A stretch of 64,000 bases of DNA from Enterobacteria phage vB_EcoM_IME341. The notes below the pieces were generated by a model that searched no databases, had not been told where the DNA came from, and worked only from the letters and a program-made list of their open reading frames with translations. Numbering within the stretch: the stretch's first letter is position 1; each line of letters starts with the position of its first letter. A program made the translations under genes and the position numbers. Positions 24,411-51,788 of this stretch are shown piece by piece. The stretch is from sequence record MH051917; one strand, given 5' to 3'.

Positions 24411-24539
24411 TATGGATGCTCTTATTACGGTATTTTGGGTAGGAGTTGTTTTATTCGGATTGTTGTTAGTGCTAAGTTGCACTGCTAAACTATTAGGATA
24501 TTAATAAATACCCTTATCTAATAATGGTAAGGGTTTATT

Positions 24540-25013
24540 ATGTTGTTGACCGGCAAATTATACAAAGAAGAAAAACAAAAACTTTATGATGCACAATGTG
24601 GTAAGTGTTTGATTTGTAAACGTGAATTAAACCCTGATGTTCAAAGTAACCACCTTGACCACGACCACGAGTTAAACGGGCCAAAAGCCGGTAAGGTTCG
24701 TGGTTTACTATGTAACCTGTGCAATGCTGCAGAAGGACAAATGAAGCATAAGTTCAACCGTTCTGGTCTTAAAGGTCAAAACGTTGACTACCTCGAATGG
24801 TTAGAGAATTTGCTGGTCTATCTGAAAGCTGATTATACTGAAAACAATATTCATCCTAATTTCGTTCCTGATAAAACCAAAGAGTTCAGCAGGTTGGGTA
24901 AGGAAGAAATGATTGCTGAAATGCTTTCACATGGAATGACTTATAATGAATCTGCTACTAAGAAACAAATGGTCGATTCGTTTAAAAAACAACTGAGGAA
25001 ATCGCTTAAATGA
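24540..25013 (+). CDS. 49: endonuclease VII (Holliday-junction resolvase)
   Basis: MLLTGKLYKEEKQK...LDHDHELNG...CNLCNAAEG matches T4 gp49. Confidence 0.9.
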   Translation: MLLTGKLYKEEKQKLYDAQCGKCLICKRELNPDVQSNHLDHDHELNGPKAGKVRGLLCNLCNAAEGQMKHKFNRSGLKGQNVDYLEWLENLLVYLKADYTENNIHPNFVPDKTKEFSRLGKEEMIAEMLSHGMTYNESATKKQMVDSFKKQLRKSLK

Positions 25014-25134
25014 TTAATTTTTATGGCTACACATTTTATGCTTTAGCCGAATCTCTGAACGATGCAGTGCGTATTATGGGTGTTGAGTATCCTGCTCAAT
25101 GGTTATTTGTTGTAACTAACATGTGGGTTCTTTA

Positions 25135-25350
25135 ATGAACAAATTTCGTAATGCTGTTTCCGATATCCTGGCCAATATTACATTTGCCCTGTTTATCGTG
25201 TGCCTTTTAATCCTGGTCATCCCGTTTGGATTACTGTTTGTTATTATCGGTGCCCTGAGTACTGAAAAAGGTCTTGAAGGGTCTGAGTTCGAAAAACGAA
25301 TCCAGTCTGTTCATGGTGTTATTTCTAAAATGATGAAGGTGAAAGAATGA
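25135..25350 (+). CDS. small membrane protein
   Basis: in-frame ATG 25135; TM helix. Confidence 0.45.
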   Translation: MNKFRNAVSDILANITFALFIVCLLILVIPFGLLFVIIGALSTEKGLEGSEFEKRIQSVHGVISKMMKVKE

Positions 25351-25643
25351 AACGTTTTGAAGAATATGTAGCTACTAATTGGACCGCATGGGACAAGTTC
25401 GGTGATGATTGGTACTTCCATGACTGTGACCTGAACCCGGAATTCTTTGTCGGTAAGGAAGAAGACCTCAAGGACATCTATACTCTTTCAGAGATTCATG
25501 GTATCAAACCTACTGTCTACTTCTCTTTTGATGATACCGGGTTCCTTATCAAGATTTACGTCCCGTATGGAACTAATGAGGACGAAGTTCTAAAAACCTG
25601 GGACTACCAAGGAGTTATTTCCTGTGGACCAAAAGTTAACTAA
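25347..25643 (+). CDS. hypothetical protein
   Basis: 98-aa ORF. Confidence 0.5.
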   Translation: MKRFEEYVATNWTAWDKFGDDWYFHDCDLNPEFFVGKEEDLKDIYTLSEIHGIKPTVYFSFDDTGFLIKIYVPYGTNEDEVLKTWDYQGVISCGPKVN

Positions 25644-25941
25644 AATCGAAATCTACGGCATTCCTGAGACAGTTATGCGCTGTCCAGGGTGCATTGCAGT
25701 TCTATCGCTCCTAAATTCCCTTTCTATCCCACATACTTTCTATCCTGTGATTAACCAGACGCCGTCAGGCGCGGTATATGACAAGCCTCTTATAGTATCA
25801 TTGGCTAAACGCGCCGGCTTCAAGAGCTTAGCGATACGCTATCCTGTCATCTTTGTCGATAATAAGAAAATAGAAAATATTCCTGCCTTCAAATCACTTT
25901 TGATTGAACTTGGTTATGACCAAGATTTAATTGAAGATTAG
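25624..25941 (+). CDS. NrdH-like thioredoxin-fold redoxin
   Basis: CPGC motif near N-terminus; apparent GTG start at 25624; ~105 aa. Confidence 0.5.
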   Translation: MDQKLTKIEIYGIPETVMRCPGCIAVLSLLNSLSIPHTFYPVINQTPSGAVYDKPLIVSLAKRAGFKSLAIRYPVIFVDNKKIENIPAFKSLLIELGYDQDLIED

Positions 25942-25942
25942 T

Positions 25943-25971
25943 GTTTACTTCCTCTCCTCACGTGTTATAGT
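25943..25971 (+). promoter_or_regulatory. early promoter
   Basis: GTTTAC -35 and TG-n-TTATAG -10. Confidence 0.5.
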
Positions 25972-26000
25972 CTATCCTATCAACACATGAGGAGAACATT

Positions 26001-26183
26001 ATGACTATCCAAGATAAAGAAATTAAAGCCGACCAGTATTATTTGGTAAATGGGCGTGCGGTTCGTGTAATTGCTGCTAGCGATTCAGACGTATGGTATC
26101 GTGTACTGGACCATAGAAATATTCCATTGATGGTATGTGACCGTAGTTTGTTTTGTTCGATAGCTAAGGAAATTAAATTATGA
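26001..26183 (+). CDS. hypothetical protein
   Basis: 60-aa ORF after early promoter 25943. Confidence 0.45.
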   Translation: MTIQDKEIKADQYYLVNGRAVRVIAASDSDVWYRVLDHRNIPLMVCDRSLFCSIAKEIKL

Positions 26184-26434
26184 GCCTGAAATTACACTCA
26201 ATGGAAAATATCATTACCCTTAATCTGGATGATGAGCGCCTGATTTTTCTCACCATCACTGATAAAAATATTGAAATCGCTAACGGCCCGAAAACTTATT
26301 GCTGTCCTGTTAAGAATTGGAAACGCGTAACATTTCTTACTCTGGCCGAACGCCTGAAAGATATTAAGTTAGATTTGGATGTCAAAGATGTCCAATACAT
26401 TAAAAATCTTATTGGATACAAACTGCTGAGGTAA
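26180..26434 (+). CDS. hypothetical protein
   Basis: 84-aa ORF. Confidence 0.5.
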   Translation: MSLKLHSMENIITLNLDDERLIFLTITDKNIEIANGPKTYCCPVKNWKRVTFLTLAERLKDIKLDLDVKDVQYIKNLIGYKLLR

Positions 26435-26436
26435 CT

Positions 26437-26730
26437 ATGGGTAAAACTATCCGTCGTAAAGAATTGTCTGTAAAAGATTTTTATTATTCCGGACGCCGTA
26501 AAGCACCGGACGGCGTAAGTCAGGATTTGGTTGAAGAAAATATCTTCCGTTCTGACAAGTGGAAACGTATGCGCGGTGTTGATTCCGAAGTTAAGAATGA
26601 AATGAATCGCCAGCTTCGTAAAGAAGTGAGAAAGCTGAAAAAAGATGTTTACAACGATGATGAACCTGATTACAATACTTCTCATCAAGTTGCAAAACGT
26701 AAATCAAACGAATGTTATCGTTACAGCTGA
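26437..26730 (+). CDS. hypothetical basic protein
   Basis: 97-aa ORF. Confidence 0.5.
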   Translation: MGKTIRRKELSVKDFYYSGRRKAPDGVSQDLVEENIFRSDKWKRMRGVDSEVKNEMNRQLRKEVRKLKKDVYNDDEPDYNTSHQVAKRKSNECYRYS

Positions 26731-26737
26731 GGAAAAT

Positions 26738-26869
26738 ATGAATATCAAACGAATGCTTTTTAAGCAAGGGTTATATACCTTAAATGTTGCTCCAAAAGGC
26801 GATACAACCAAGTGGTCAGTAAATGACTGGGTTAAATTCATTGATGAAAATGGCAATTGGAAAATTTAA
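26738..26869 (+). CDS. hypothetical small protein
   Basis: in-frame ATG 26738 after SD GAGGAAAA. Confidence 0.35.
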   Translation: MNIKRMLFKQGLYTLNVAPKGDTTKWSVNDWVKFIDENGNWKI

Positions 26870-27070
26870 ATGAATCCTGAATCTAAATTATCACAGCAAA
26901 TTTCTGAAGCCCGTCGTCAGTTCTTTGAAAATATGATAGCCCAAGGTATTGATGACGAAGTTTTTCTGAACTGGTTTTGGAACCACAAATATTCAGCTTG
27001 TTCAGGCGCTTTGTTAATTTCCGCAGCAATGATGTTCGAAGGTTGGAAAGGCGCTAAAGCACAAAAATAG
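26870..27070 (+). CDS. hypothetical protein
   Basis: 66-aa ORF. Confidence 0.45.
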   Translation: MNPESKLSQQISEARRQFFENMIAQGIDDEVFLNWFWNHKYSACSGALLISAAMMFEGWKGAKAQK

Positions 27071-27099
27071 TTTACAAACTCTTGGGACCAGAGTATAAT
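27070..27099 (+). promoter_or_regulatory. early promoter
   Basis: GTTTACA -35 and GAGTATAAT -10 lying in loop of GGGACCA/TGGTCC hairpin. Confidence 0.55.
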
Positions 27100-27138
27100 G
27101 GTCCTACGGATTATAACTTTAAAACTGAGGAAATTATT

Positions 27139-27468
27139 ATGTCACAAGCTATTAAAAACGTACTGAACTCTTTCGCTTTCGATAAAGTAAACGAACTGAT
27201 GAAAACAGGTTTTGTAACTCCTCAGGTTCTTGACCAATGGGTTGCCGAACTGTTACCAATCATGCACTCCAAAGACCAGAAAATTGGTAAGAATGGTATT
27301 CGTGAAATCCTGGTCCAATATATCCTCGATGAATTCGATGTCGCTGCCTTTGGTGTTGAATCTAAAGCTTGGGCCCCTGGTGAAATCTCGGATAAAACTA
27401 TCCGTCGTATGAAAAACCAACGTAAGAAAAAATTCGTTGACCTTAAAATTGTTAAGGCGGCGAAATGA
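27139..27468 (+). CDS. hypothetical protein
   Basis: in-frame ATG 27139 after SD GAGGAAA. Confidence 0.5.
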   Translation: MSQAIKNVLNSFAFDKVNELMKTGFVTPQVLDQWVAELLPIMHSKDQKIGKNGIREILVQYILDEFDVAAFGVESKAWAPGEISDKTIRRMKNQRKKKFVDLKIVKAAK

Positions 27469-27713
27469 GTAATTTGCCTGAAGATGTATCGGTTATAATA
27501 GTTCTTAAAGCTTTAGCCGGTTTCCAACGTACACCCATGATGGATAATATTGAAACTATTATAAAAGCGGTTAAGAGGCTAAGTGTAATCCATCGTGATT
27601 TCAGGATATTTCCTATAAGCTCTGAGACCACTTATATGAAAATGCCTAATCCTAAAACAGCTTGGGATGAAGGCATGACATTAAATGAATTTGAGGATTA
27701 TTTAAATGATTAA
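27465..27713 (+). CDS. hypothetical protein
   Basis: 82-aa ORF. Confidence 0.5.
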   Translation: MSNLPEDVSVIIVLKALAGFQRTPMMDNIETIIKAVKRLSVIHRDFRIFPISSETTYMKMPNPKTAWDEGMTLNEFEDYLND

Positions 27714-27972
27714 AATAAAACTCTCTAATTACGATAAAAACTTGGAAATGATTACTATGAAAGAAGAACTCCTGAATGATGTCCGCTTTACCGGTTATGC
27801 AGTTCAATTTAATGGCGATGGGACTCTTCAAATTGAAGGCGACCACTTTATTATTGAATATGAATTCCACCAGTATTGGTTGTATGCGAAGGACGAAGTT
27901 GGCGGTGTTGATTACGTCGATGAGTTTGATAATCTTGATGACGCACTAGAAGGAGCTCGATTCCTACAATGA
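27706..27972 (+). CDS. hypothetical protein
   Basis: 88-aa ORF. Confidence 0.5.
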   Translation: MIKIKLSNYDKNLEMITMKEELLNDVRFTGYAVQFNGDGTLQIEGDHFIIEYEFHQYWLYAKDEVGGVDYVDEFDNLDDALEGARFLQ

Positions 27973-28232
27973 CCCCTGTATCCACTACCCTCGCCTACGA
28001 AGGACTAGGGATTTTCTTAATAGATAGTTATATGAATGTTGAGTTTATTTGTGGAGAGACTTCTGAAGTGTGGAAGTCTCATATTTCCAAATATAACCAA
28101 TCAGAATATTTGGTCCTTTACCAACAATTCTGTCTTTACATTCAAAGCCAAGGGTTTGAAGGAGCTCCTTCCTTTGAAGAGTTCAAAAAAATCCTTGAAA
28201 CAGTATTTCAGGCTTATTGCTTACTCCGTTGA
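27969..28232 (+). CDS. hypothetical protein
   Basis: 87-aa ORF. Confidence 0.5.
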   Translation: MTPVSTTLAYEGLGIFLIDSYMNVEFICGETSEVWKSHISKYNQSEYLVLYQQFCLYIQSQGFEGAPSFEEFKKILETVFQAYCLLR

Positions 28233-28257
28233 TGCTTTAAACGGGTCTTCAAATACT
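28231..28257 (+). promoter_or_regulatory. MotA-box middle promoter upstream of gene 55
   Basis: TGCTTTA box, 14-nt spacer, TACTAT -10. Confidence 0.5.
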
Positions 28258-28298
28258 ATGATATAATAGACCTATGATTTGAGTTATCTGAGGTAACA

Positions 28299-28856
28299 AT
28301 GACCGAAATTAAACTGACTAAAAATAACTATGTAAATAATAAGGAGCTTCTGAAAGCTATTACCCAATGGAAAACAGAGCTCAGAGAAAATACCGATCCT
28401 AATAAAATAGTTCGTCAGAACGACGTTATCGGCTTGGCTATTATGCTCATTGCTGAAGGACTAAGTAAACGTTTCAACTTCTCAGGATATACCCAATCTT
28501 GGAAGCAAGAAATGATTGCTGATGGAATCGAAGCTTCGATTAAAGGTCTTCACAACTTCGACGAAACAAAATACGACAACCCACATGCATATATCACTAT
28601 GGCTTGTTTTAATGCCTTCGTTCAGCGTATCAAAAAAGAACGTAAAGAAATGGCAAAGAAATATAGCTACTTCGTCCATAACGTCTATGACAGTAATGAT
28701 GACGACATGGTAGGTATTGCAGATGAAACCTTTATCCAAGATATCTACGACAAAATGACTCAGTATGAAACCTCTTTAACTAAAGCACCAGGGTCTGATA
28801 AGAGTGCCGAACCTAAAGTTGGTGAACTGGATTTTTTATATGGAACATCAGATTAA
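28299..28856 (+). CDS. 55: late-transcription sigma factor gp55
   Basis: 185 aa; strong match to T4 gp55; preceded by MotA-box promoter. Confidence 0.9.
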
Positions 28857-29070
28857 TATCACTCCACTTTTGGATGGAATGGAAGACTTTGAAGCACTCC
28901 CTTATTTTATTAAATTGATATTACGGGATGTTAAAGGCCTTCCTATTGATATTGACCCACTTAACGTCAGGAATATTGAATTCACTTCTCCTGACAATAA
29001 CGTAGATTATCGTTATCATGTTGAGAACGCTAATTTCTACTTCACTATTGAATTGACTCCAAAGGATTAA
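28840..29070 (+). CDS. hypothetical protein
   Basis: in-frame ATG 28840. Confidence 0.45.
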
Positions 29071-29071
29071 T

Positions 29072-29383
29072 ATGCAAAGCCATGACATTTCTCAATTGAC
29101 TGATGAGCAAATTGAAGAAGCCCAGCAACGTTTAGAAGAGCACAATATTAAAGAAGCTAATTCTCAAGCGGCTAAGATTCTTAAGAAGAATGCTCGTGAA
29201 ATCCGTCGTTTAAATCTCCATGCCCAAGGCGCTGTACTTGAAAACAACTTTGAAGCATATAAGTACGCTTTAATTAAATTACGTGGTATTTACCGTCAAC
29301 CTGTTACTGATGAACTTGTTCAATTGATGTGGGAATCTACTCGCAAACAAATTTGGGAAATCGTCAATGGCTCTAGTAAATAA
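29072..29383 (+). CDS. hypothetical protein
   Basis: 103-aa ORF. Confidence 0.5.
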   Translation: MQSHDISQLTDEQIEEAQQRLEEHNIKEANSQAAKILKKNAREIRRLNLHAQGAVLENNFEAYKYALIKLRGIYRQPVTDELVQLMWESTRKQIWEIVNGSSK

Positions 29384-29567
29384 ACCCTTTAAACGGCTTC
29401 TTATTGGAGCCGCCTTTAGACTTCGCTCATACGGTAATATCTGTATTAAGCAGTCCGAAACCGAATATAAAATGATGGGCCAATATTCTGATGGTATTTT
29501 TCAGATTGAGCCCGTAGCCAAGGTTTGGGTAGATTCTCATCAACTTAAGAAGTGGTGGCAGAGATGA
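29367..29567 (+). CDS. hypothetical protein
   Basis: 66-aa ORF. Confidence 0.4.
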   Translation: MALVNKPFKRLLIGAAFRLRSYGNICIKQSETEYKMMGQYSDGIFQIEPVAKVWVDSHQLKKWWQR

Positions 29568-29625
29568 TAACATGGACTGCAGGCTAATGAAAGACGAATA
29601 CGAAAAAGTTTAAGAGGCTGTATGA

Positions 29626-29799
29626 ATGACGAATTCGATGGATTTTGATAAGATTAAATCTGACAAAAATGAGATGTTGCTTCAATTTGAAGCCGCTCGT
29701 ATTAAAGCAGAAAATGAAGGTACTATTACCTATAAGCCTATCAAGTTCAGGTCTAATCACGAACCTCTGTACGGTGTATTAGTTGGTAAAGGAGCTTAG
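29626..29799 (+). CDS. hypothetical small protein
   Basis: 57 aa, SD AAGAGG; stop overlaps terminator hairpin; not in ORF track. Confidence 0.3.
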   Translation: MTNSMDFDKIKSDKNEMLLQFEAARIKAENEGTITYKPIKFRSNHEPLYGVLVGKGA

Positions 29800-29810
29800 G
29801 CTCCTTTTTT
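29791..29810 (+). terminator. intrinsic terminator
   Basis: GGAGC-TTAG-GCTCC hairpin plus T6, overlapping stop codon of small ORF. Confidence 0.6.
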
Positions 29811-29834
29811 GCTTTATGCATATCGGAGTACAAT
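29810..29834 (+). promoter_or_regulatory. MotA-box middle promoter upstream of gene 47
   Basis: TGCTTTA box, 12-nt spacer, TACAAT -10. Confidence 0.5.
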
Positions 29835-29855
29835 AGTCTAAACTGAGGAGAACAT

Positions 29856-29999
29856 ATGGAATTATTTTTAGGATATGTCGTGCTATTAATGGCATTCTAT
29901 ACATTCACACGAGCTTGTTGGATAGGATTCTTTTCCACTCCTGACGGGTTCATTTCAATAATTTTATTTTGCACTGCGATAACGGCGCTTGGCTTATGA
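29856..29999 (+). CDS. micro-ORF, membrane peptide
   Basis: 47 aa, SD GAGGAG, ATGA overlap with gene 47 start; not in ORF track. Confidence 0.35.
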   Translation: MELFLGYVVLLMAFYTFTRACWIGFFSTPDGFISIILFCTAITALGL

Positions 30000-31018
30000 A
30001 AATACTAAACACAGGTGACTGGCACCTTGGAGTTAAGAACGATGATGTGTGGGTACAGAATATCCAACGTCAAGGTATCCAAGACGCTATTGATTATTCT
30101 AAAGCAAATGGTATTACTGTCTGGATTCAGTACGGTGATATCTTTGACGTTCGTAAAGCAATTACCCACAAGTGCATGGAATTCGCTCGCGAAATTTCCG
30201 ATTTGCTTAAAGCCAACGGCATTACCATGTATACTATCGTTGGCAACCATGATATGCACTACAAAAATACCTTGACTCCGAACGCAGCTTCAGAAGTTCT
30301 GGGTAAATATGACCATATCAAGGTTATTGAGAAACCTACTACGGTTAACTTTGATGGCACCGAAATTGATTTGATTCCATGGATGTGTGAAGAAAACACG
30401 ACCGATATCATGGACCATATCAAAAATACCACAGCAGATTTCTGTATAGGTCACTGGGAATTAAATGGTTTCTATTTCTATAAAGGAATGAAATCTCATG
30501 GTTTAGAACCTGATTTCCTTAAGAAGTATAAGCAAGTTTGGTCAGGCCATTTCCACACTATTTCTGATGCAGCAAACGTTAAGTATATTGGTACGCCATG
30601 GACCCTGACTGCTGGAGATGAGAACGACCCTCGCGGCTTTTGGATTTTCGATACAGAAACCCATAAGATGGATTTCATCATTAATGAAACCTGTTGGCAC
30701 CGTAAGATTCATTATCCAAATGCGACTATCGATTACAAAGATTTTACAAATATCGCAGTTCGTGTTATAGTCGATAAAATTGATGACGGTCTTACTAAGT
30801 TCGAATCAGAGCTTGAAAAGGTTGTCCATTCTTTACGTATCGTGTCTAAGGTAGATAACAGTGTTGATATCGATGATTCTGAAGAGGAAGATGAAGTTAA
30901 GTCCCTCTTGGATATGATGTATGATTATATCGATGCCCTTCCTGATGGCCACACTGAAGACGATGTTAAAGCCCTTAAGACTATGGCTGCACAACTTTAT
31001 AATGAGGTTACACGATGA
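29996..31018 (+). CDS. 47: recombination endonuclease subunit gp47 (Mre11-like)
   Basis: MKILNTGDWHLG and GNHDM phosphoesterase motifs; matches T4 gp47. Confidence 0.9.
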   Translation: MKILNTGDWHLGVKNDDVWVQNIQRQGIQDAIDYSKANGITVWIQYGDIFDVRKAITHKCMEFAREISDLLKANGITMYTIVGNHDMHYKNTLTPNAASEVLGKYDHIKVIEKPTTVNFDGTEIDLIPWMCEENTTDIMDHIKNTTADFCIGHWELNGFYFYKGMKSHGLEPDFLKKYKQVWSGHFHTISDAANVKYIGTPWTLTAGDENDPRGFWIFDTETHKMDFIINETCWHRKIHYPNATIDYKDFTNIAVRVIVDKIDDGLTKFESELEKVVHSLRIVSKVDNSVDIDDSEEEDEVKSLLDMMYDYIDALPDGHTEDDVKALKTMAAQLYNEVTR

Positions 31019-31278
31019 CTTTAGATGAATTCAAAAAATCAGGCCTTGAACTAGAACACGACTGTATCGTTATTGATGACGATAACCAAACGAGCATCAT
31101 TAAGTTCTGGTTTGAAGCCGTGAGCACTCGTGATACCAACGAGCTTATTAAAGTTTATGTTGCTACTGATTGGGCTGTGGAATTTAGCTTTAATGTAATG
31201 GTAGATGATACTCCAGAAACATTAATTCATATGGCTGAATCATGCATCAAGGATGCTTATAACGATGAAGACTTTTAA
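31015..31278 (+). CDS. hypothetical protein
   Basis: 87-aa ORF between 47 and 46. Confidence 0.45.
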   Translation: MTLDEFKKSGLELEHDCIVIDDDNQTSIIKFWFEAVSTRDTNELIKVYVATDWAVEFSFNVMVDDTPETLIHMAESCIKDAYNDEDF

Positions 31279-32947
31279 GTTAAAGAAAGTAACGTATAAA
31301 AATATTATGTCGGTAGGCCAGCAACCTATTACAATCCAACTTGACAAGGTCCAAAAGACCTTAGTCACCGGTAAAAATGGCGCTGGTAAATCTACGTTCC
31401 TTGAAGCCGTTACATTTGCTCTGTTCGGTAAGCCTTTTCGTGATGTTAAGAAAGGGCAGTTGATTAACTCAAGTAATAAGAAAGACCTTTTGGTCGAACT
31501 GTGGATGGAATATGATGGCAAAGAATACTATATCAAGCGCGGGCAAAAACCCAATATTTTTGAAATCTCTTGTGGCGGTGAACGTCTTGATGAATCTGCC
31601 AGCAGTAAAGACTTCCAAGCAGAATTTGAACAGCTTATCGGAATGTCATATGCCAGTTTCAAACAGATTGTCGTACTTGGTACAGCAGGGTATACCCCTT
31701 TCATGGGTTTGTCGACCCCTGCGCGCCGAAAGCTTGTGGAAGACCTCTTAGAGGTTTCTGTATTGGCGGATATGGACAAGTTGAACAAATCTTTGATTCG
31801 TGAGACTAATAGCCAAATCCAGGTAATCGACGTTAAACAGGATTCTATTACCCAGCAAATTAAAATTTATAATGACAACGAAGAACGTCAGCGTAAATTA
31901 TCCGGCGAGAATGCAGCACGTCTACAAACAATGTACGATGAGCTCGTGAAGGAAGCCAGGACTGCGAAGGGCAATATAGAAAAACTGACTGATGAATTAC
32001 TCAATGTCATCGTCGATGATGACCCTAGCAACTCTATGAGTGACCTGAGCAATAAAGGATTTGCAATCAAGAATGATATGGCAACCTTTACTAAGGTTGT
32101 GAAATTATACGAAACCGGTGGTAGTTGTCCTACATGTATGCAAGGATTGGAAGAGCATGGAAATATCCTTACTAAAATTAAGGATAAGAACTTTGAGCTT
32201 CAAAAATCTTTGGATAAGATTAATGAGCAGTACCAAGAACTCAAGCTCATTAAGGACCAAGTAACCGAACAACGTAATAAAGCACTGGCTATTAAATCTC
32301 AGATAGCTACTCATAAGCAACAAGCCATTACTGCTGTAGAGAAAGCTAAAAAGGTTAAAGTATTAATTGACCAAGCTGCGGCAGAGTTCGTAAGTAATGC
32401 CGAAGAGATTGCCACGCTTCAAGCAGAGCTTGATAAAATCGTCTCTACCAAATCGTCCTTAGTAATGGAAAAATATCATCGTGGAATTCTGACAGAAATG
32501 TTGAAGGATACCGGTATTAAAGGTTCCATTATTAAGAAATACATTCCTATCTTTAATAAGCAGATAAATTCTTATTTGAAGATTATGGAAGCCGACTACG
32601 TCTTTACACTGGACGAAGAGTTCAATGAGACGATTAAATCACGTGGACGTGAAGACTTTAGCTATGCTTCATTTTCACAGGGTGAGAAAGCACGTATTGA
32701 TATCGCACTACTTTTTACATGGCGCGATATTGCTTCTAAGGTATCAGGTGTTAATATCAGCACGTTAATTCTTGATGAGGTATTTGACAGTGCTACTGAC
32801 GCTGAAGGCGTTAAGACCATTGCAACCATCTTGAATAGCCTTGAGGATACGAACGTGTTCATTATCTCTCACCGAGACCATGACCCACAAGCTTATGGCC
32901 AACATCTTCAAATGAAGAAAGTTGGACGATTTACGGTGATGGAATGA
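31265..32947 (+). CDS. 46: recombination endonuclease subunit gp46 (Rad50/SbcC-like)
   Basis: Walker A GKNGAGKST, coiled coil, C-terminal LILDEVFD; near-identical stretches to T4 gp46. Confidence 0.95.
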   Translation: MKTFKLKKVTYKNIMSVGQQPITIQLDKVQKTLVTGKNGAGKSTFLEAVTFALFGKPFRDVKKGQLINSSNKKDLLVELWMEYDGKEYYIKRGQKPNIFEISCGGERLDESASSKDFQAEFEQLIGMSYASFKQIVVLGTAGYTPFMGLSTPARRKLVEDLLEVSVLADMDKLNKSLIRETNSQIQVIDVKQDSITQQIKIYNDNEERQRKLSGENAARLQTMYDELVKEARTAKGNIEKLTDELLNVIVDDDPSNSMSDLSNKGFAIKNDMATFTKVVKLYETGGSCPTCMQGLEEHGNILTKIKDKNFELQKSLDKINEQYQELKLIKDQVTEQRNKALAIKSQIATHKQQAITAVEKAKKVKVLIDQAAAEFVSNAEEIATLQAELDKIVSTKSSLVMEKYHRGILTEMLKDTGIKGSIIKKYIPIFNKQINSYLKIMEADYVFTLDEEFNETIKSRGREDFSYASFSQGEKARIDIALLFTWRDIASKVSGVNISTLILDEVFDSATDAEGVKTIATILNSLEDTNVFIISHRDHDPQAYGQHLQMKKVGRFTVME

Positions 32948-33135
32948 GTGATTTTATAACAGGCCAGCATTTGTTGGCCGTTCCTGAACTAAAGCGATAC
33001 GTTTTAGTTAACAACTTCTCTGGTGACGAACACCTTGTTACTGAAGATTATCTCCGAAATGCTTTTAAGTCAGAGTATGATAGAATCATGTCGAACAGGA
33101 ACCCTGCCTGGTTCGTTTATGAATACTTTGATTAA
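32944..33135 (+). CDS. hypothetical protein
   Basis: 63-aa ORF. Confidence 0.45.
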   Translation: MSDFITGQHLLAVPELKRYVLVNNFSGDEHLVTEDYLRNAFKSEYDRIMSNRNPAWFVYEYFD

Positions 33136-33141
33136 ATTAAG

Positions 33142-33165
33142 TGCTTTAAAATATTGATTTATAAT
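33142..33165 (+). promoter_or_regulatory. MotA-box middle promoter upstream of rpbA/45
   Basis: TGCTTTA box, 11-nt spacer, TATAAT -10. Confidence 0.5.
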
Positions 33166-33195
33166 ACATCTACCAACCAAATGAGAGAAAATATT

Positions 33196-33609
33196 ATGTT
33201 TGCTAACGCTATTACTGTTAAAGATATCCAAGTTAAAACCATTCGTACTGACTCTAACCCACACAATCAAAACCGTATTCGTAAATCATGGGTACTGAAT
33301 ATTGATACCAACTCTGCACGTCGTCTGCAGTCTCTTCCACAAGAAACTAAGTTCATGCTCTATGGTATCATTGATAACGACGTATCCGATAAGTGGGTAG
33401 AAATTATGCGTCGTCATTATAATGATTCTCTGGCCGCAGGTGCTAAACTGGTTATCGACCGTGATGGTTCTGAACGTCTCGAAGATGATTATTGCGTAGA
33501 TTTTGACGAACAACTGCTTGAAGCCGGTGCTATTGTTGCTTCCCAGATTCCAGAGTATATTGAATCTCTGCCTGAATCCATTCGTAAACAAATGATCGTT
33601 ATTGCTTAA
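33196..33609 (+). CDS. rpbA: RNA polymerase-binding protein RpbA
   Basis: position upstream of gene 45; in-frame ATG 33196 after SD. Confidence 0.75.
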   Translation: MFANAITVKDIQVKTIRTDSNPHNQNRIRKSWVLNIDTNSARRLQSLPQETKFMLYGIIDNDVSDKWVEIMRRHYNDSLAAGAKLVIDRDGSERLEDDYCVDFDEQLLEAGAIVASQIPEYIESLPESIRKQMIVIA

Positions 33610-33637
33610 TTAATTTTTGACTTGATAAGGAAACATT

Positions 33638-34336
33638 ATGAAATTCTCTAAAGAAACTCTGAACATTCTGAAAAACTTCTCCGGTATTAACCCAGGTATC
33701 ATGCTTAAACCTGGTAACACTATTCTAACTCGTTCAGTAACGGGTGCCAGTTATGGTGAAGCTACTGTAAATGACACCTTTGATATCGAAGCCGCAATTT
33801 ATGATTTGAATGGCTTCTTAAGTATTCTGTCATTGGTATCCGATAGTGCTGAAGTTTCGGTAAGTGAAGACCAAACCACCTTAATTATTAAAGACCAACG
33901 TTCAACTATTAAGTGGCCTATTGCCGACCCAAGTACAATTGCATTCCCAAGCAAAGCTATTCCGTTCCCGGTGGCTGAAGTTATTTTTGACCTTAAAGCC
34001 GAAGATTACCAACAGTTGATGCGTGTGTCCTCTGGACTGAGTATTGATACATTTGCTATCACTGTAGACAATGGTAAAATTGTAATCAACGGTTACAAAC
34101 AAGTTGATGATAAGGACCTGGCACGTCCATTGTATTCCTTAGTGGTTGCGGACCATGATGGCCCTGAATTCAAATTCATTATTAACAAAACTAATATGAA
34201 AATGATGCCGGCTGATTACCATGTATTGCTATGGGCTCGTGGTGAAGGTCAAGACGCTCGTTTCGCAGCCAAGTTTGAAGGTTCACAAGCTTCTTACGTA
34301 TTAGCTATGGAAGCAGGCTCAAGCCACTCGTTCTAA
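33638..34336 (+). CDS. 45: sliding clamp gp45
   Basis: 232 aa; strong match to T4 gp45 throughout. Confidence 0.95.
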   Translation: MKFSKETLNILKNFSGINPGIMLKPGNTILTRSVTGASYGEATVNDTFDIEAAIYDLNGFLSILSLVSDSAEVSVSEDQTTLIIKDQRSTIKWPIADPSTIAFPSKAIPFPVAEVIFDLKAEDYQQLMRVSSGLSIDTFAITVDNGKIVINGYKQVDDKDLARPLYSLVVADHDGPEFKFIINKTNMKMMPADYHVLLWARGEGQDARFAAKFEGSQASYVLAMEAGSSHSF

Positions 34337-40241: not shown

Positions 40242-40301
40242 GCAATACCAATTTATTAAAAATAGTGTATAATGTACCTACATTCACTTGAGGAACAGAT
40301 A

Positions 40302-41975
40302 ATGAAAAAGGTTGTTATTTTAGGCGCAGGTCTTGGCTCACGGTTGTATCCAATTACTAACGAAATCCCGAAGGTATTGGTTAACTACAAACAACATACT
40401 GTATTAAAACATTTGTATGATTTGTATAGTAACCAATCGGATGAAATTATTCTGGTTATTCACAGCAAATTTAACGACCTCGTTAAAGGCTATATTAAAT
40501 CCATTAACATGATTAATAGTGATAAGCCTAAATTCACTATTCGTAACGTAGATGTGGCTAATGGTTCAGCTCATGCTATTGATTGCATTGCCGAAGATAT
40601 CATCGGGCACAATGTCTTGTTTAACTGGTGTGATATTATTCCTGAAGGTTATAAAGTTGAGTGGGATAACGACTATTGCTATACCTACGGGACTGACTGT
40701 CGTTTTACATTTGAAGAACCGTACTTGCGTGAAATTGGTACCGGTGGTGGCGTAGTTGGCTTGTATCAGGTGGCTAATTGGACAGGTTTTAACGGTCTGT
40801 ATTATGGCGAAGACCTGGCCGACAACCTGGATTCAATGGTCCATTTGACCGAACGTAAGCTAGACTTTGTAGTTGATGTCGGTGACAAACTGAAACTGGC
40901 TAAGGCCCATGAAGAATCTGAAATTAACCGTGAATTTAATAAATTAGAGTTCACTGAGAATCTGGCTATTAAAGTACCTACCAACGAATTAGGTAAAGAA
41001 ATCCAATCTAAAGAAATCAATTGGTATAATTCTATTGATTCTGAATTTGTTCCGAGCATTGTAGACTTTGCTCCAGGTGAATTCATTAAAATGGAACGTA
41101 TCTTTGGTCGTACTATGGCAGATGCCTATCGGTTTATGTCTAAAGAAACTAAAGTCCTCATGGTTTATAAGGTCATTAGTGCATTACGTTCATTCGGTGG
41201 AACTATCGATAATCCATCCGATGAGCAATGGTATTCCGATGTTAAGAAAGAAGTATTGGACAAGGTCCTTATTCGTAATGCTTCTATTGCCGGATTGATT
41301 GAAGGCTTTGCTCCACAGGGCATTACCCATGTCAATGACTTTAAGGTAGGCGACCCTGAAAAACTTCTTCGCCATGCACTAGAAATTCTGTCTGAACATA
41401 AAGAACCGTACCAACTTATTCATGGCGACCCGCACTACAGTAATATTATGTTGTCGGACGAAGGTGATATTAAAATCATCGACCCACGTGGTTATTTTGG
41501 TAATAGTTCTAAAGGCCCTGCGATTTATGACGAAGCTAAAGTGCTTTATTCTATCGATGGTTATGACAAATTTAACTCTGACCCTCTATGGGGCGGCTTA
41601 ACTCGTAACGGAACTCGTGTATTCGTTGATATTGAAAAGGTTATGCCTTTAGACGATATTCCGATGTGTACATTTAAGCACAAGCTCTGGATTGCTGTTA
41701 TCTGGATGGCATTGGCAGGTTACTTTAAAAATAACCCTCTGAAAGCTCTGGGTGCTTATTACAACGGGTTGTACCAACTGAGTGTGCTGCTTAAGCGGCA
41801 TCCTCGTAAGCGTAAGCTTATCACAGGTGAATTTGTCGATGAAGTTCGTGACCCTATCACGGCTCAAATTATCACTCGTTGTCCTGATAAGTGGGTTTTG
41901 CTTGACCAAGAAACTGGTGTAAAATATAAACCTACAGGTTCTACTGAACTCCACAAACAATGGAAGAAAATTTAA
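40302..41975 (+). CDS. bifunctional nucleotidyltransferase / APH-fold kinase
   Basis: N-term ILGAGLGSRL (sugar-phosphate NTase); C-term HGDPHYSNIM and IIDPRG (APH/choline-kinase-like). Confidence 0.65.
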   Translation: MKKVVILGAGLGSRLYPITNEIPKVLVNYKQHTVLKHLYDLYSNQSDEIILVIHSKFNDLVKGYIKSINMINSDKPKFTIRNVDVANGSAHAIDCIAEDIIGHNVLFNWCDIIPEGYKVEWDNDYCYTYGTDCRFTFEEPYLREIGTGGGVVGLYQVANWTGFNGLYYGEDLADNLDSMVHLTERKLDFVVDVGDKLKLAKAHEESEINREFNKLEFTENLAIKVPTNELGKEIQSKEINWYNSIDSEFVPSIVDFAPGEFIKMERIFGRTMADAYRFMSKETKVLMVYKVISALRSFGGTIDNPSDEQWYSDVKKEVLDKVLIRNASIAGLIEGFAPQGITHVNDFKVGDPEKLLRHALEILSEHKEPYQLIHGDPHYSNIMLSDEGDIKIIDPRGYFGNSSKGPAIYDEAKVLYSIDGYDKFNSDPLWGGLTRNGTRVFVDIEKVMPLDDIPMCTFKHKLWIAVIWMALAGYFKNNPLKALGAYYNGLYQLSVLLKRHPRKRKLITGEFVDEVRDPITAQIITRCPDKWVLLDQETGVKYKPTGSTELHKQWKKI

Positions 41976-42334
41976 TGCATCTGTGTTTTGATATCGATAA
42001 CACAATCACGGTTTGGAACCACGACCGTGATTATGAAAACTTTAAACCGGACACCGAAATGGTGTCCATGATTAATAAGCTTTATGACGAAGGTTATGAG
42101 ATTACACTGTTCACTGCTCGTGGCATGACTTCATGTGGACCCGGTCGAATCTTGGTTGAAGTAGTTCCTGCATTGGTTAAGAACCTTGAAAAGATTGGAT
42201 TGAAATATCATAATCTGCTTACACACAAGCCGAGTTATACTTTTATCATCGATGACCGAGCAATCCGTCCTGACCACTTTAAAGAAATGGTTCGTGAAGG
42301 AACTCTTGAAACCTATAAGGCATATCATCCGTGA
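41975..42334 (+). CDS. HAD-superfamily phosphatase-like protein
   Basis: FDIDNTI (DxDxT motif I) and FIIDDR (motif IV); TAATG overlap with upstream gene. Confidence 0.5.
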   Translation: MHLCFDIDNTITVWNHDRDYENFKPDTEMVSMINKLYDEGYEITLFTARGMTSCGPGRILVEVVPALVKNLEKIGLKYHNLLTHKPSYTFIIDDRAIRPDHFKEMVREGTLETYKAYHP

Positions 42335-42867
42335 AACCAAAAATCATTGTTATCGACGGCCCGGATAATTCCGGGAAGTCTACTTTAATTGAATCACTTT
42401 TATCTGATAAGAAATATCGTCTTATTGATTTTCCTAAAAAGATTAATGGCAAATGCATTTCATTAGGGACTGATAATGACAAGGCTTTAGTCGAGACGTT
42501 GTATAAGTTTTTAGACCCTAATTTCGTTTACATCCTCGACCGTGGTTATCCAAGTAATATAGTTTACTCAGGATTCCTTCGTGGTGAAATGGACCCTTAT
42601 GTGGAACTAGCAGATTGGATTGATTTCAAAAAAGAATTCAATATCATTGAGATTATTTTAACCCGTAATCCGTTGGATAAAGACTTTGAAGATGACCTCA
42701 TTAAACTGACTAAAGATGAGTTCAACTTAACTATTCAGAAATATGAAGACTGTTTTAAAAATGTTTTTAAAGTTTTAAACCATGACGGACATAATAACTT
42801 GCTTAACGTCGATATGGTAGAATTAAAACGTCTGAATGAATATATTGAAAATAAGGTGAATAAATGA
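42331..42867 (+). CDS. P-loop kinase (thymidylate/dNMP-kinase-like)
   Basis: VIDGPDNSGKST Walker A; apparent GTG start overlapping upstream stop (GTGA). Confidence 0.6.
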   Translation: MKPKIIVIDGPDNSGKSTLIESLLSDKKYRLIDFPKKINGKCISLGTDNDKALVETLYKFLDPNFVYILDRGYPSNIVYSGFLRGEMDPYVELADWIDFKKEFNIIEIILTRNPLDKDFEDDLIKLTKDEFNLTIQKYEDCFKNVFKVLNHDGHNNLLNVDMVELKRLNEYIENKVNK

Positions 42868-43562
42868 AACACATTACCGCTGTTAGTTTTGAAAACGCGT
42901 TTAAGCAAATGAACGAAGAAATCCTGGAAGCTCCACAGTTTGCAGTTGATTCTCGTATCGGCCGTTGTTATGAAATTGGTTCTGCTTCGGTAGAAGTACT
43001 GGATGCAAGCACTTACAAATTCACCGATCCCCGCATTAATCGTATCAACTATGATTATGCCGAATCTTTCTGGAAATTTATGATTTCTGGTGGTACTGAT
43101 GCCGCCGAAGCATTTAAGGAATATCCTAATGTTGCTAAGTTCATTGATAAGCCGAAAAGTGACGTATTGCCTGCAAACTTCAACACTTTCTATGGACCTC
43201 GAATTGTGGCCCAACTCCCAGCCCTACTTAAAGAGCTTAAAGAAAAGCCTAACTCGCGAAGAGTTGTGTTCCAGATTCTCCAAGAACAAGACCAAGCCCT
43301 CCTTGATTCTGACGAATCCTTAGAATATCCGTGTACCGATTCGGTAACATATTATATTCGTGATGGACGTCTGTATGCACACACTCATATGCGTTCACAG
43401 AACTGTGCTATCGTTATGCAGCTGGATTTCTATCTGCAGGGTAAACTGATGGCCTTTATTGCTGAACAGTGTGGTGTTGGTCTGGGTACGTATTCCCATA
43501 CTATGGTTAGTGCACATGTATTTGAACGTGATTTTGACTACGTTCGAGGATTCCTGAAATGA
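42864..43562 (+). CDS. 42: thymidylate-synthase-family pyrimidine hydroxymethylase (gene 42 homolog, divergent)
   Basis: PNSRR, catalytic Cys in YPCTDSV, HMRSQN; pattern closer to T4 gp42 than to ThyA. Confidence 0.7.
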   Translation: MKHITAVSFENAFKQMNEEILEAPQFAVDSRIGRCYEIGSASVEVLDASTYKFTDPRINRINYDYAESFWKFMISGGTDAAEAFKEYPNVAKFIDKPKSDVLPANFNTFYGPRIVAQLPALLKELKEKPNSRRVVFQILQEQDQALLDSDESLEYPCTDSVTYYIRDGRLYAHTHMRSQNCAIVMQLDFYLQGKLMAFIAEQCGVGLGTYSHTMVSAHVFERDFDYVRGFLK

Positions 43563-44452
43563 GTCTGTTTATCGTTCCTATTTTCAGTATGCGTAGTTAC
43601 GAAACAGGTGAATATGCCGTCCTTAAGGACGGTAATTTTCAACTCCATTTAAACCGTGCTTGCCCAGGTGATTATCTGGCTTATCCTAGAAATTCGAGCG
43701 ATATCAAAGAATGTATTGAATTGTTTCCTGAACTGAATTTTGTACCGCTTTGGTATAAAGAAAATGCTTATGAAACCCGTAAACATTTTTGGTCTGAAAA
43801 TGAGTTCGTTGTTGATTCGCTAATCGAATACTATGACTGCTCAGGATTAGTAACCGATATCACAGGTTATGATGGTGCTCAGACAGTACAATTCAACTTT
43901 AACATTACAATGGACCCTGAAGTTCCTCGTTATTATATTGATGAGTTCATTGATATCGATGTGTCTTCGGTTGAACGTTCGATTTATACTACAGTCCTTA
44001 ACCAATGCCAGAAAGACGTCCTGGTGTCACGAGGTGCGTCCTCTGATAAGATTTTTGTAGACCAAAAGGTAATTAATCCTGCAATAATTGAGCGTTACTC
44101 TGAAGGTCTAGCGCCTATTAAAATTGATGGTATTTTCCATCCATTCCGTATCTCTGATAAATGCTATCAATTCGAAAGAGTTGTAGACCAAGCTGCGGCT
44201 GAAGGTTCTCGTCTTTACATCACCGATCCGAATGATTCATTTAAGCGTGAAGACTATCGTCCTGATGTAGAGATTATTAAATTCAAACCGAGTAAGGTTG
44301 AATATTATCAGATTCTGAAATCAAGACCTCATATCATTTATCATGAGAATCCTGGTTTAGTATTCCATCCTGGTCTAGCTGAATTCATTTATTTCGGTGC
44401 CCATATCCATTCTGAGTACGAAATGCCGAGTTATGAGGACGTAGTATGCTAG
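43559..44452 (+). CDS. hypothetical protein in beta-glucosyltransferase position (candidate DNA-modifying transferase)
   Basis: 297-aa ORF, ATGA overlap with gene 42 homolog; no similarity to T4 beta-gt recognised. Confidence 0.5.
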   Translation: MSLFIVPIFSMRSYETGEYAVLKDGNFQLHLNRACPGDYLAYPRNSSDIKECIELFPELNFVPLWYKENAYETRKHFWSENEFVVDSLIEYYDCSGLVTDITGYDGAQTVQFNFNITMDPEVPRYYIDEFIDIDVSSVERSIYTTVLNQCQKDVLVSRGASSDKIFVDQKVINPAIIERYSEGLAPIKIDGIFHPFRISDKCYQFERVVDQAAAEGSRLYITDPNDSFKREDYRPDVEIIKFKPSKVEYYQILKSRPHIIYHENPGLVFHPGLAEFIYFGAHIHSEYEMPSYEDVVC

Positions 44453-51266: not shown

Positions 51267-51788
51267 ATGGCACACTTTAATGAATGTTCACAACTTATTG
51301 CTGGTGTTGATAAAGCTGAGAAAGCTTATTTTAATGCTCTGATTCACGAAGATAAAGACCCTCTGCAGGTTATGCTTGATATGCAGAAATCATTACAGGT
51401 CCGTTTGGCTAAAGATAAACCTGAATATAACCGTCATCCTGATGACTTGGCTACTGCAGGTGAAGTTGTTGATTGGTTGCGCAATCAGAAAGATTATATT
51501 GATGATGAATTCCGCGAACTTCTGACTTCTCTTGGTGGCATGAGCAATGGCGAAAAAGATGCGAGCGCTGTATGGAAGCCTTGGAAAGCTCAACATGCTG
51601 AACGTCGTGAAACCCTGATTAACGATTTGTCTCCTGAAGACCAGCTCGAAATTAAATTCGAAATGATTGATATTCTGCACTTTGTTCTGAATATGTTCCA
51701 AGGCCTTGGACTGACTGCTGAAGAAATCTTTAAGTTGTATTACCTGAAAAACGCTGAGAACTTTGCTCGTCAAGACCGAGGTTATTAA
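51267..51788 (+). CDS. 56: dCTP pyrophosphatase gp56 (MazG-like)
   Basis: 173 aa; MAHFNECSQLIAGVDKAE...EIFKLYYLKNAENFARQDRGY resembles T4 gp56. Confidence 0.85.
   Translation: MAHFNECSQLIAGVDKAEKAYFNALIHEDKDPLQVMLDMQKSLQVRLAKDKPEYNRHPDDLATAGEVVDWLRNQKDYIDDEFRELLTSLGGMSNGEKDASAVWKPWKAQHAERRETLINDLSPEDQLEIKFEMIDILHFVLNMFQGLGLTAEEIFKLYYLKNAENFARQDRGY

Follow-up and report, generated by a model that had tools for sequence, protein, structure and literature searches.

Probably, the T4-like coliphages of the Dhakavirus lineage use a pathway for arabinosyl-5-hydroxycytosine in place of the hydroxymethylcytosine-glucose system of T4, and lack the class III reductase. The DNA analyzed here (the window, 64,000 nucleotides of sequence record MH051917) comes from Enterobacteria phage vB_EcoM_IME341, a T4-like coliphage and Dhakavirus (JS98/IME08 group). 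Positions 26000-34000 were 96.9% identical to phage C6 and 96.5% identical to IME08. For vB_EcoM_IME341 itself the 64-kb window was searched, and absence from a whole genome was judged on the complete genome of IME08, at this identity of 96.5% in the region. Genes in the intervals 49-55 and 55-47 were assigned by tblastn with T4 and RB69 proteins. The absences described below are a matter of which genes are present, for which chance need not be considered as it would for a statistical pattern.

Gene content of the intervals 49-55 and 55-47

The initial annotation had reported no alpha-gt between genes 55 and 47, no nrdD/nrdG between genes 49 and 55, and only small ORFs (at most about 130 aa) in both intervals, and all three observations were confirmed. 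Its interval 28856-29996 was exact, with gp55 ending at 28856 and gp47 starting at 29996. Five small genes of 47-103 aa were alone there, homologs of a-gt.5, a-gt.4, a-gt.3, a-gt.2, and 47.1 by tblastn, and T4 alpha-gt gave no significant tblastn match. The slot between a-gt.2 and 47.1 was reduced to 56 bp (29800-29855), the equivalent of which holds mobB and a-gt on the T4 map; in IME08, a seg-like GIY-YIG ORF was inserted in the same slot.

The order of the 49-55 interval was 49, a 109-bp spacer, 55.8, an RB69-ORF082-like gene, nrdH, 55.6, an RB69-ORF079-like gene, 55.5, 55.4, 55.3, 55.2, an 82-aa ORF (27465-27713, no match among T4/RB69 proteins or Pfam), 55.1, an RB69-ORF072-like gene, and 55. 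Nothing but the spacer separated 49 from 55.8, and this contiguous 49|55.8 junction was common to 46 phage records. The largest ORF on the + strand of the interval was 128 aa; an antisense ORF of 130 aa is unlikely to be a real gene. Thus, the segments absent relative to T4 were exactly mobB plus a-gt and nrdD/mobC/nrdG. When the window was searched by tblastn with T4 alpha-gt, T4 beta-gt, RB69 NrdD, and RB69 NrdG, nothing better than E = 0.02 was obtained, this being the best match of T4 alpha-gt (400 aa) over 36 aa; T4 beta-gt (351 aa) had no match at E <= 1. Promoter-like sites in 24400-30200 were not enriched over shuffles (16 found vs 17.6 expected).

Table 1. Features of the vB_EcoM_IME341 window (positions of the whole stretch)
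Feature	Position	Strand	Basis
Gene 49, endonuclease VII; adjoins the empty nrdD/nrdG slot on its upstream side	24540..25013	+	87% to T4 gp49; Pfam Endonuclease_7 and dimerisation domain
109-bp spacer; T4/RB69 position of nrdD(-mobC)-nrdG	25014..25122	+	T4 and RB69 gene maps
55.8 homolog	25123..25350	+	42% to T4 55.8, 37% to RB69 55.8
nrdH glutaredoxin homolog	25624..25941	+	60% to T4 NrdH
Gene 55, late sigma factor	28299..28856	+	79% identity to T4 gp55 over 185 aa
a-gt.5 homolog (DUF5491)	28840..29070	+	41% to T4 a-gt.5; Pfam DUF5491; phrog_1169
a-gt.4 homolog (DUF2654)	29072..29383	+	41% to T4, 49% to RB69 a-gt.4; Pfam DUF2654
a-gt.3 homolog	29367..29567	+	45-46% to T4 and RB69 a-gt.3; phrog_1648
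a-gt.2 homolog (DUF5486)	29626..29799	+	56-57% to T4 and RB69 a-gt.2; Pfam DUF5486
Terminator-like hairpin (29788-29807; a-gt.2 ends within it) with short spacer	29788..29855	+	
47.1 homolog, small hydrophobic protein	29856..29999	+	76% to T4 gp47.1; phrog_6693
Gene 47, SbcD-like nuclease subunit	29996..31018	+	71% to T4 gp47 over 339 aa; Pfam Metallophos
AfhE-like bifunctional enzyme, predicted: N-terminal sugar-1-phosphate nucleotidyltransferase, C-terminal sugar kinase	40272..41975	+	Pfam; role from PMC13326640
AfhF-like small HAD-type phosphatase, predicted	41960..42334	+	63% to RB69 gp51 over 122 aa; phrog_1238; role from PMC13326640
P-loop nucleotide kinase (RB69 gp45-like)	42331..42867	+	37% to RB69 gp45; weak AAA/P-loop Pfam matches
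Predicted 5-hydroxy-dCMP synthase (ThyA superfamily)	42864..43562	+	RB69 gp48 identity, PDB match, signature residues
GT-B fold DNA glycosyltransferase, RB69 gp46:47-like, putative first arabinosyltransferase	43559..44452	+	T4 beta-gt position
Gene 56, dCTPase/dUTPase	51267..51788	+	91% to RB69 gp56 over 173 aa; Pfam dUTPase_2

The modification cassette and its relatives

The gene at 42864-43562 had been taken for a retained homolog of gene 42. It does belong to the ThyA family, but its product was only 24-25% identical to T4 gp42 (E = 1.8e-9) and 78-79% identical to RB69 gp48. Identity was 71% to DLP3 gp80 and 79% to the homolog of the Mosigvirus NicPhage, and the protein matched the crystallised HY126 enzyme (PDB 9iqu/9iqc, E ~1.5e-125) and Pfam Thymidylat_synt (E = 4.8e-14). 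In E. coli ThyA numbering it carries N169, D177, E143, and C146, all as in RB69 gp48. The catalytic Cys (C146), the cytosine-specifying Asp (E. coli N177 position), and the ThyA fold family are shared with gp42, whereas close similarity to gp42 was not found and the D169 position, Asp in T4 gp42, is occupied by Asn. Lee et al. 2026 (PMC13326640, discussion) give this Asn as diagnostic of 5-hydroxy-dCMP synthases, and the whole set of D169N, N177D, L143E, and catalytic Cys was present together with high identity to characterised members. Both RB69 gp48 and DLP3 gp80 are 5-hydroxy-dCMP synthases by experiment; the RB69 enzyme makes 5hodC and not 5hmdC, as demonstrated by LC-MS with an authentic standard and 18O2 labelling (PMC13326640, section 24), and 5-ara-dC was found by mass spectrometry in NicPhage DNA (PMC13326640, PMC13390438). 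Judged from sequence, the product of 42864-43562 is almost certainly a 5-hydroxy-dCMP synthase and not a hydroxymethylase. Considering the Asn signature and the RB69 gp48-level identity, the predicted base is 5-hydroxycytosine and not the hydroxymethyl-pyrimidine of the initial annotation.

The whole cassette (40272-44452), comprising AfhE-like, AfhF-like, nucleotide kinase, synthase, and GT-B genes, agreed with the earlier view of an alternative modification module. In the AfhE-like ORF (567 aa), Pfam placed an NTP_transferase domain at residues 13-110 and an APH kinase domain at residues 356-427; RB69 gp53 (43% identity) and gp52 (41%) aligned with it in collinear order within the one ORF. 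The AfhF-like protein had no Pfam match. The sole glycosyltransferase of the cassette (43559-44452, 297 aa) was 66-70% identical to RB69 gp46:47; a GT-B fold was found for it by fold search, and a sequence search against PDB sequences gave no match. Three components of an Afh pathway, namely an AfhE-type enzyme, an AfhF-type phosphatase, and a syntenic first glycosyltransferase with GT-B fold, were present. The genome is probably glycosylated by this GT-B enzyme, whose gene is inside the window, so that the former caveat about glucosyltransferases beyond it looked in the wrong direction. [quoted passage not shown] Two candidates were rejected: the 39|rIIA.1 slot as the site of a gp3-type transferase is occupied by a DUF7367 ORF of roughly 110 aa, and the 166-aa ORF at 39741-40241, considered as an isomerase substitute, carries a signal peptide of the lipoprotein type (MKKLIIAMSILLSGC), lacks Pfam domains, and belongs to a narrow family (11 clusters). 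The cassette was kept at at least 90% identity in about 50 phage records.

The arabinosyl-5-hydroxycytosine cluster of RB69 and the Mosigviruses (gp45-gp55 plus gp3; Afh genes of HY126) was described by Lee et al. (NAR 2026, PMC13326640) and reportedly also by He et al. and by Mahler et al. (2025). As in RB69, the Dhakavirus cassette lies between gene 43 and uvsX, and the 55-47 interval is without a-gt in both. The orthologs were 78% (synthase), 66-70% (first glycosyltransferase), 63% (AfhF), 41-43% (AfhE), 37% (nucleotide kinase), and 91% (gp56) identical, the last being the dCTPase correctly noted before as retained. The Dhakavirus cassette differs in lacking the isomerase (gp55), gp50, gp49, and the second transferase gp3, in having imm and a lipoprotein gene upstream, and in the position of the kinase, which is upstream of the synthase and not downstream of the glycosyltransferase as in RB69. 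Moreover, RB69 retains nrdD/nrdG, whereas vB_EcoM_IME341 is without both. The logic of T4 (gp42, gp56, alpha-gt, beta-gt) appears to be the same, namely a dCTPase, C5 modification of dCMP by a ThyA-family enzyme, and finally a GT-B enzyme that adds the sugar after replication. The gene of this transferase adjoins the ThyA-family gene as T4 beta-gt adjoins 42, and a-gt.2-a-gt.5 and 47.1, the small genes that flank the a-gt slot, are shared with T4. Shewanella phage Thanatos, which is only distantly related, infects another host, and was compared from the paper alone, likewise has one syntenic arabinosyltransferase, and its cytosine is mono-arabinosylated (PMC13326640, section 26).

Proposed pathway and alternative explanations

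What was observed is the gene content, the degree of homology, the residues of the signature, and the fold of the glycosyltransferase. From these we infer what each enzyme does, which sugar is attached, and how many sugars there are, as follows. The gp56 dCTPase would deplete dCTP and supply dCMP, the enzyme of 42864-43562 would hydroxylate dCMP at C5 with O2 and flavin to give 5-hydroxy-dCMP, and phage kinases would convert this to the triphosphate, which would replace C at replication. The AfhE-like kinase/uridylyltransferase and the AfhF-like phosphatase would provide UDP-arabinofuranose, with arabinose 5-phosphate presumably supplied by the host because the phage has no isomerase, and the single GT-B transferase would add arabinose onto the 5-hydroxyl. 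Without a second transferase of the gp3 type, the pathway most likely ends at mono-arabinosyl-5-hydroxycytosine; a single sugar is also predicted because Thanatos, with its one syntenic arabinosyltransferase, is mono-arabinosylated. What speaks against the proposed transfer is that single transferases, when purified, showed no activity on 5hoC DNA (PMC13326640, section 26). In this lineage ribonucleotides would be reduced by phage NrdAB and, without oxygen, by enzymes of the host. A lineage without the hydroxymethylcytosine-glucose system of T4 would have an a-gt slot that is empty save for the conserved small genes. The literature searched contained no nucleoside chemistry of Dhakaviruses, only genomic inference: Lee et al. 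2026 (PMC13326640, section 24, Fig. 4) list them among the phages with the cluster and draw them among 'cytosine arabinosylation gene clusters'.

Since the genome is roughly 170 kb long and the window covers 64 kb of it, a T4-type glucosyltransferase and/or nrdD-nrdG could have been relocated beyond it, a possibility raised for the glucosyltransferases by the initial annotation, which also proposed a whole-genome search for alpha-gt/beta-gt homologs. This search was run on the relative IME08, and none was detected by tblastn or phmmer. In the complete IME08 genome, alpha-gt, beta-gt, gp3, NrdD, and NrdG had no tblastn match better than E = 0.07, which was the best match of alpha-gt (beta-gt, E = 7.6), and no phmmer match at E <= 1. 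Neither class III NrdD (about 605 aa) nor NrdG (about 156 aa) matched significantly in the window or the IME08 genome, and the only nrd genes in the IME08 annotation are nrdA, nrdB, nrdC, and nrdH. Furthermore, JS98-type phages were listed without alpha-gt and beta-gt (Petrov et al. 2010, PMC2993671), and JS98, JS10, and IME08 appear in the NrdA/NrdB trees but not in the NrdD tree (Dwivedi et al. 2013, PMC3653736). Relocation is thus extremely unlikely, and the earlier claim of a genome without T4-type glucosyltransferases stands for the window and for complete IME08. The other part of the initial reading, a gp42-type dCMP hydroxymethylase with hydroxymethylcytosine either bare or decorated via its hydroxymethyl group, like the ara-hmC proposed for RB69 (Thomas et al. 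2018, PMC6024577), could draw on the distant homology to T4 gp42, on the cytosine-specifying Asp and the acidic residue at L143 common to gp42, and on many database records that say dCMP hydroxymethylase. Nevertheless, it is very improbable in view of the far higher identity to RB69 gp48 (78%), the 5hodC product of that enzyme, and the Asn at D169, and the 2018 assignment was explicitly called erroneous (PMC13390438).

If the base is 5-hydroxycytosine, it might still bear a group other than arabinose or be unglycosylated, and the cassette would then be a reduced and diverged RB69 cluster. The absence of isomerase, gp50, and gp3 homologs is compatible with this, and the AfhE homolog is so distant from that of RB69 (41-43%) that the sugar could differ. 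On the other hand, E. coli produces its own arabinose 5-phosphate via KdsD/GutQ, so a phage isomerase would be dispensable, and the AfhF homolog and the transferase are much closer to their RB69 counterparts (63% and 66-70%). In phage RL38J1, 5hoC bears other sugars (galactose/glucose) (PMC13326640), but the Dhakavirus clusters were drawn with those for cytosine arabinosylation in the same paper. We therefore consider a different sugar, or none, unlikely and prefer mono-arabinosylation.

A possible oxygen requirement, and significance

The two absences might be linked through oxygen. The synthesis of 5-hydroxy-dCMP needs molecular oxygen and dCTP is destroyed by gp56, so Dhakaviruses may not replicate without O2; NrdD/NrdG would then have become useless and been lost, in a lineage with a minimal cassette and a mono-arabinosyl product made from host arabinose 5-phosphate. 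IME08 encodes alc, denA, and denB, which act against cytosine DNA, and in spot checks of the slot alone, nrdD/nrdG were also missing from it in synthase carriers of two further enterobacterial lineages, Klebsiella phage Clarke_MM3 and Kanagawavirus IME523, as the idea would predict. However, Mosigviruses carry the same synthase yet retain nrdD/nrdG, and the link, though conceivable, is rather doubtful.

The gene content reported here is real, ordinary, and already documented and explained. The missing glucosyltransferases of JS98-type phages were reported in 2010 (Petrov et al., PMC2993671), and nothing is new beyond the literature of that year and of 2025-26. Reasoning from the T4 map, however, would wrongly give hydroxymethylcytosine DNA. 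Dhakaviruses serve as therapeutic and biocontrol coliphages, and the chemistry of their DNA decides how far restriction, CRISPR, and type IV systems (GmrSD/BrxU) can act on it and how readily it is sequenced and cloned. Testable predictions are that the product is mono-arabinosylated, that the phage depends on arabinose 5-phosphate from the host, and that its growth may require oxygen. Many Dhakavirus records still label the cassette genes 'dCMP hydroxymethylase', 'thymidylate synthase', 'phosphoheptose isomerase', and 'thymidylate kinase', the third of these being a frequent mis-annotation of the AfhF-like phosphatase.

Gene content around gene 55

The T4 and RB69 proteins were mapped onto the window by tblastn, with the T4 and RB69 records as reference maps (see table). 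The initial annotation had reported that no alpha-glucosyltransferase gene is present at 28856-29996, and both this observation and its coordinates were confirmed: the interval between genes 55 and 47 consists of five small genes (a-gt.5, a-gt.4, a-gt.3, a-gt.2, and 47.1) assigned to functionally uncharacterized Pfam or PHROG families. T4 contains the same five, and there a-gt.2 and 47.1 are separated by mobB and a-gt; in the window the corresponding slot is 56 bp long and carries a terminator-like hairpin, and RB69 likewise has no a-gt between 55 and 47. The nrdD and nrdG genes, also reported as missing, are indeed absent between 49 and 55. T4 and RB69 possess nrdD(-mobC)-nrdG between 49 and 55.8, whereas the window phage has only a 109-bp spacer, and this contiguous junction is common to 46 phage records. 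From 49 to 55 the order is 55.8, RB69-ORF082-like, nrdH, 55.6, RB69-ORF079-like, 55.5, 55.4, 55.3, 55.2, an 82-aa ORF, 55.1, and RB69-ORF072-like. All genes of the examined region lie on the + strand, the direction of T4 early genes. The longest ORF between 49 and 55 (26296-26688, - strand; 130 aa from a TTG start) runs antisense to 55.5 and the RB69-ORF079-like gene and is probably not a real gene.

Features of the window phage and their relation to T4 and RB69
Feature	Position	Strand	Remarks
Gene 49	24540-25013	+	87% identity to T4 (tblastn)
82-aa ORF	27465-27713	+	No assignment
Gene 55	28299-28856	+	79% identity to T4 (tblastn)
a-gt.5	28840-29070	+	tblastn with T4/RB69 proteins
a-gt.4	29072-29383	+	tblastn with T4/RB69 proteins
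a-gt.3	29367-29567	+	tblastn with T4/RB69 proteins
a-gt.2	29626-29799	+	tblastn with T4/RB69 proteins
47.1	29856-29999	+	tblastn with T4/RB69 proteins
Gene 47	start 29996	+	71% identity (tblastn)
Predicted AfhE-type protein, 567 aa	40272-41975	+	N-terminal nucleotidyltransferase, C-terminal APH-type kinase domain
Predicted AfhF-type phosphatase	41960-42334	+	63% identity to RB69 gp51
Predicted nucleotide kinase	42331-42867	+	37% identity to RB69 gp45
Predicted ThyA-family synthase	42864-43562	+	232 aa, thymidylate-synthase family
Predicted GT-B glycosyltransferase, 297 aa	43559-44452	+	70% and 65% identity to the two halves of RB69 gp46:47
gp56 dCTPase	51267-51788	+	91% identity to RB69 gp56
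DUF7367 ORF, ~110 aa	63664-64000, running past window end; IME08 locus L004 2423-2773		Between gene 39 and rIIA.1

Across the whole window, T4 alpha-gt, T4 beta-gt, RB69 NrdD, and RB69 NrdG gave no significant tblastn match. About 50 complete phage genomes match window 26000-34000 over most of that length, the closest being Escherichia phages C6 (96.9%) and IME08 (96.5%), both of the genus Dhakavirus (JS98 group). The whole-genome search was run on the relative IME08, whose complete genome was put together from five loci and searched by tblastn and phmmer; T4 alpha-gt, T4 beta-gt, RB69 gp3, NrdD, NrdG, RB69 gp50, and the RB69 arabinose-5-phosphate isomerase gave no hit better than E = 0.07. 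For ribonucleotide reduction, the IME08 annotation lists class Ia nrdA/nrdB only, plus nrdC and nrdH; it also contains alc, denA, denB, cd, td, frd, and the gp1 dNMP kinase. This gene content has been known since 2010, and the mechanism since 2025-26: RB69 and JS98 were found to encode 42 and 56 homologs and to lack glucosyltransferase genes (Petrov et al. 2010, PMC2993671), and JS98, JS10, and IME08 appear in the NrdA/NrdB trees and not in the NrdD tree (Dwivedi et al. 2013, PMC3653736).

The a-gt.2|47 slot (29800-29995) is an insertion hot spot, with mobB and a-gt in T4 and 47.1 only in the window phage. In IME08 (locus L001 17823-18444) it holds an unannotated seg-like GIY-YIG ORF (MKYITYLTIYSGTKLPPFYIGST...) and lacks 47.1, and HNH or homing endonucleases are listed in several other Dhakavirus records under the same 8-kb match.

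The modification cassette

The interpretation in the initial annotation was partly supported. The absence of T4-type glucosylation and the reading of 40302-44452 as an alternative modification module were right; a hydroxymethyl-pyrimidine genome was not. The dCTPase gene is retained as described, and a ThyA-family gene does lie where a gene 42 homolog was placed, but its product is 78-79% identical to RB69 gp48 and only 24-25% to T4 gp42. RB69 gp48 and DLP3 gp80 produce 5-hydroxy-dCMP, not 5-hydroxymethyl-dCMP, as established by LC-MS with an authentic standard and 18O2 labelling; the synthase binds flavin, an Asn aligned with D169 of E. coli ThyA predicts its activity, and in RB69 DNA an ether bond joins arabinose to 5-hydroxycytosine (Lee et al. 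2026, PMC13326640). The 2018 "arabinosyl-hmC" assignment has explicitly been termed erroneous (PMC13390438). In our alignment (E. coli ThyA positions) the window protein has N169, D177, E143, and the catalytic C146, the same as RB69 gp48; residue 169 is D in T4 gp42 and in genuine thymidylate synthases. Its identity to the homolog of Acinetobacter phage DLP3 is 71%, and it matches PDB 9iqu/9iqc/9ir2 at E = 1e-125; these entries, labelled only "thymidylate synthase", are almost RB69 gp48 in sequence and presumably represent the HY126 enzyme to which PMC13326640 refers.

The 40272-41975 product is collinear with RB69 gp53 and gp52 (43% and 41% identity) and, judged from sequence, is a predicted AfhE-type arabinose-5-phosphate kinase/UDP-arabinose pyrophosphorylase. 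The 297-aa protein resembles gp46:47, the proposed first arabinosyltransferase of RB69. It had no Pfam match and no PDB sequence match; its AlphaFold2 model (42 homologs) was confident (pLDDT 94.7) with a GT-B fold. This likeness and fold place a predicted DNA glycosyltransferase inside the window, adjoining the ThyA-family gene and with uvsX downstream, where T4 has beta-gt. Searching IME08 with the profile of this family gives one copy in the whole genome; Serratia phage 92A1 also has a homolog, as do phages of Acinetobacter, Yersinia, Edwardsiella, and Proteus. The names given to the 41960-43562 genes and their homologs in public records disagree with one another and, for this pathway, mislead in most cases ("phosphoheptose isomerase", "thymidylate kinase", "thymidylate synthase", "dCMP hydroxymethylase", "deoxycytidylate 5-hydroxymethyltransferase", even "capsule biosynthesis protein").

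Expected product and anaerobic reductase

Compared with RB69, the arabinose-5-phosphate isomerase, gp50, gp49, and a gp3-type second transferase are missing from the Dhakavirus cassette, and the 39|rIIA.1 slot that holds gp3 in RB69 holds the DUF7367 ORF, which carries no annotation in the IME08 RefSeq record. Arabinose 5-phosphate is produced by E. coli itself, as a precursor of Kdo, so the phage isomerase may be dispensable to Dhakavirus. Dhakaviruses were counted among the lineages with the cluster on synteny grounds, and phage Thanatos, with one syntenic transferase, is mono-arabinosylated (PMC13326640); by analogy, we infer a mono-arabinosyl product for the window phage. Our literature search found no report on the nucleoside chemistry of any Dhakavirus. 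Between imm and the cassette, a 166-aa ORF (39741-40241) has an N-terminal lipoprotein signal peptide (MKKLIIAMSILLSGC), lacks a Pfam domain, and belongs to a family with just 11 homologous clusters; on these grounds it was rejected as a sugar-pathway member, and it may be a superinfection-exclusion-type lipoprotein.

NrdD matched 2778 phage records, 1017 of them named Escherichia; because it is so common in coliphages, its absence from a large T-even-like coliphage is somewhat unusual. Since 5-hydroxy-dCMP synthesis needs O2, a link between the synthase and the loss of NrdD/NrdG is conceivable, albeit improbable. In spot checks of two further lineages with the synthase, represented by Klebsiella phage Clarke_MM3 and by Kanagawavirus IME523, the slot is also empty. 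At these two loci, small ORFs and a glutaredoxin/thioredoxin gene directly follow gene 49, without nrdD/nrdG. In Clarke_MM3, small ORFs separate gene 55 from gene 47, and a-gt is absent; the IME523 locus ends inside gene 55, so its 55-47 interval lies outside. The 5hodCMP-synthase cluster is present in Clarke_MM3 and, for IME523, was seen only in other Kanagawavirus records. Mosigviruses, in contrast, keep nrdD/nrdG, and the Mosigvirus NrdD checked (RB69, NicPhage) is ~98% identical to that of Tequatrovirus. Between RB69 (locus L003 45444-47261) and T4 (locus L002 21536-24386), NrdD is ~98% and the adjacent NrdG 80% identical, and NrdD at least 95% identical to that of RB69 occurs in 638 phage records. 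These sequence identities suggest that nrdD is either extremely conserved or recently exchanged between Mosigvirus and Tequatrovirus.
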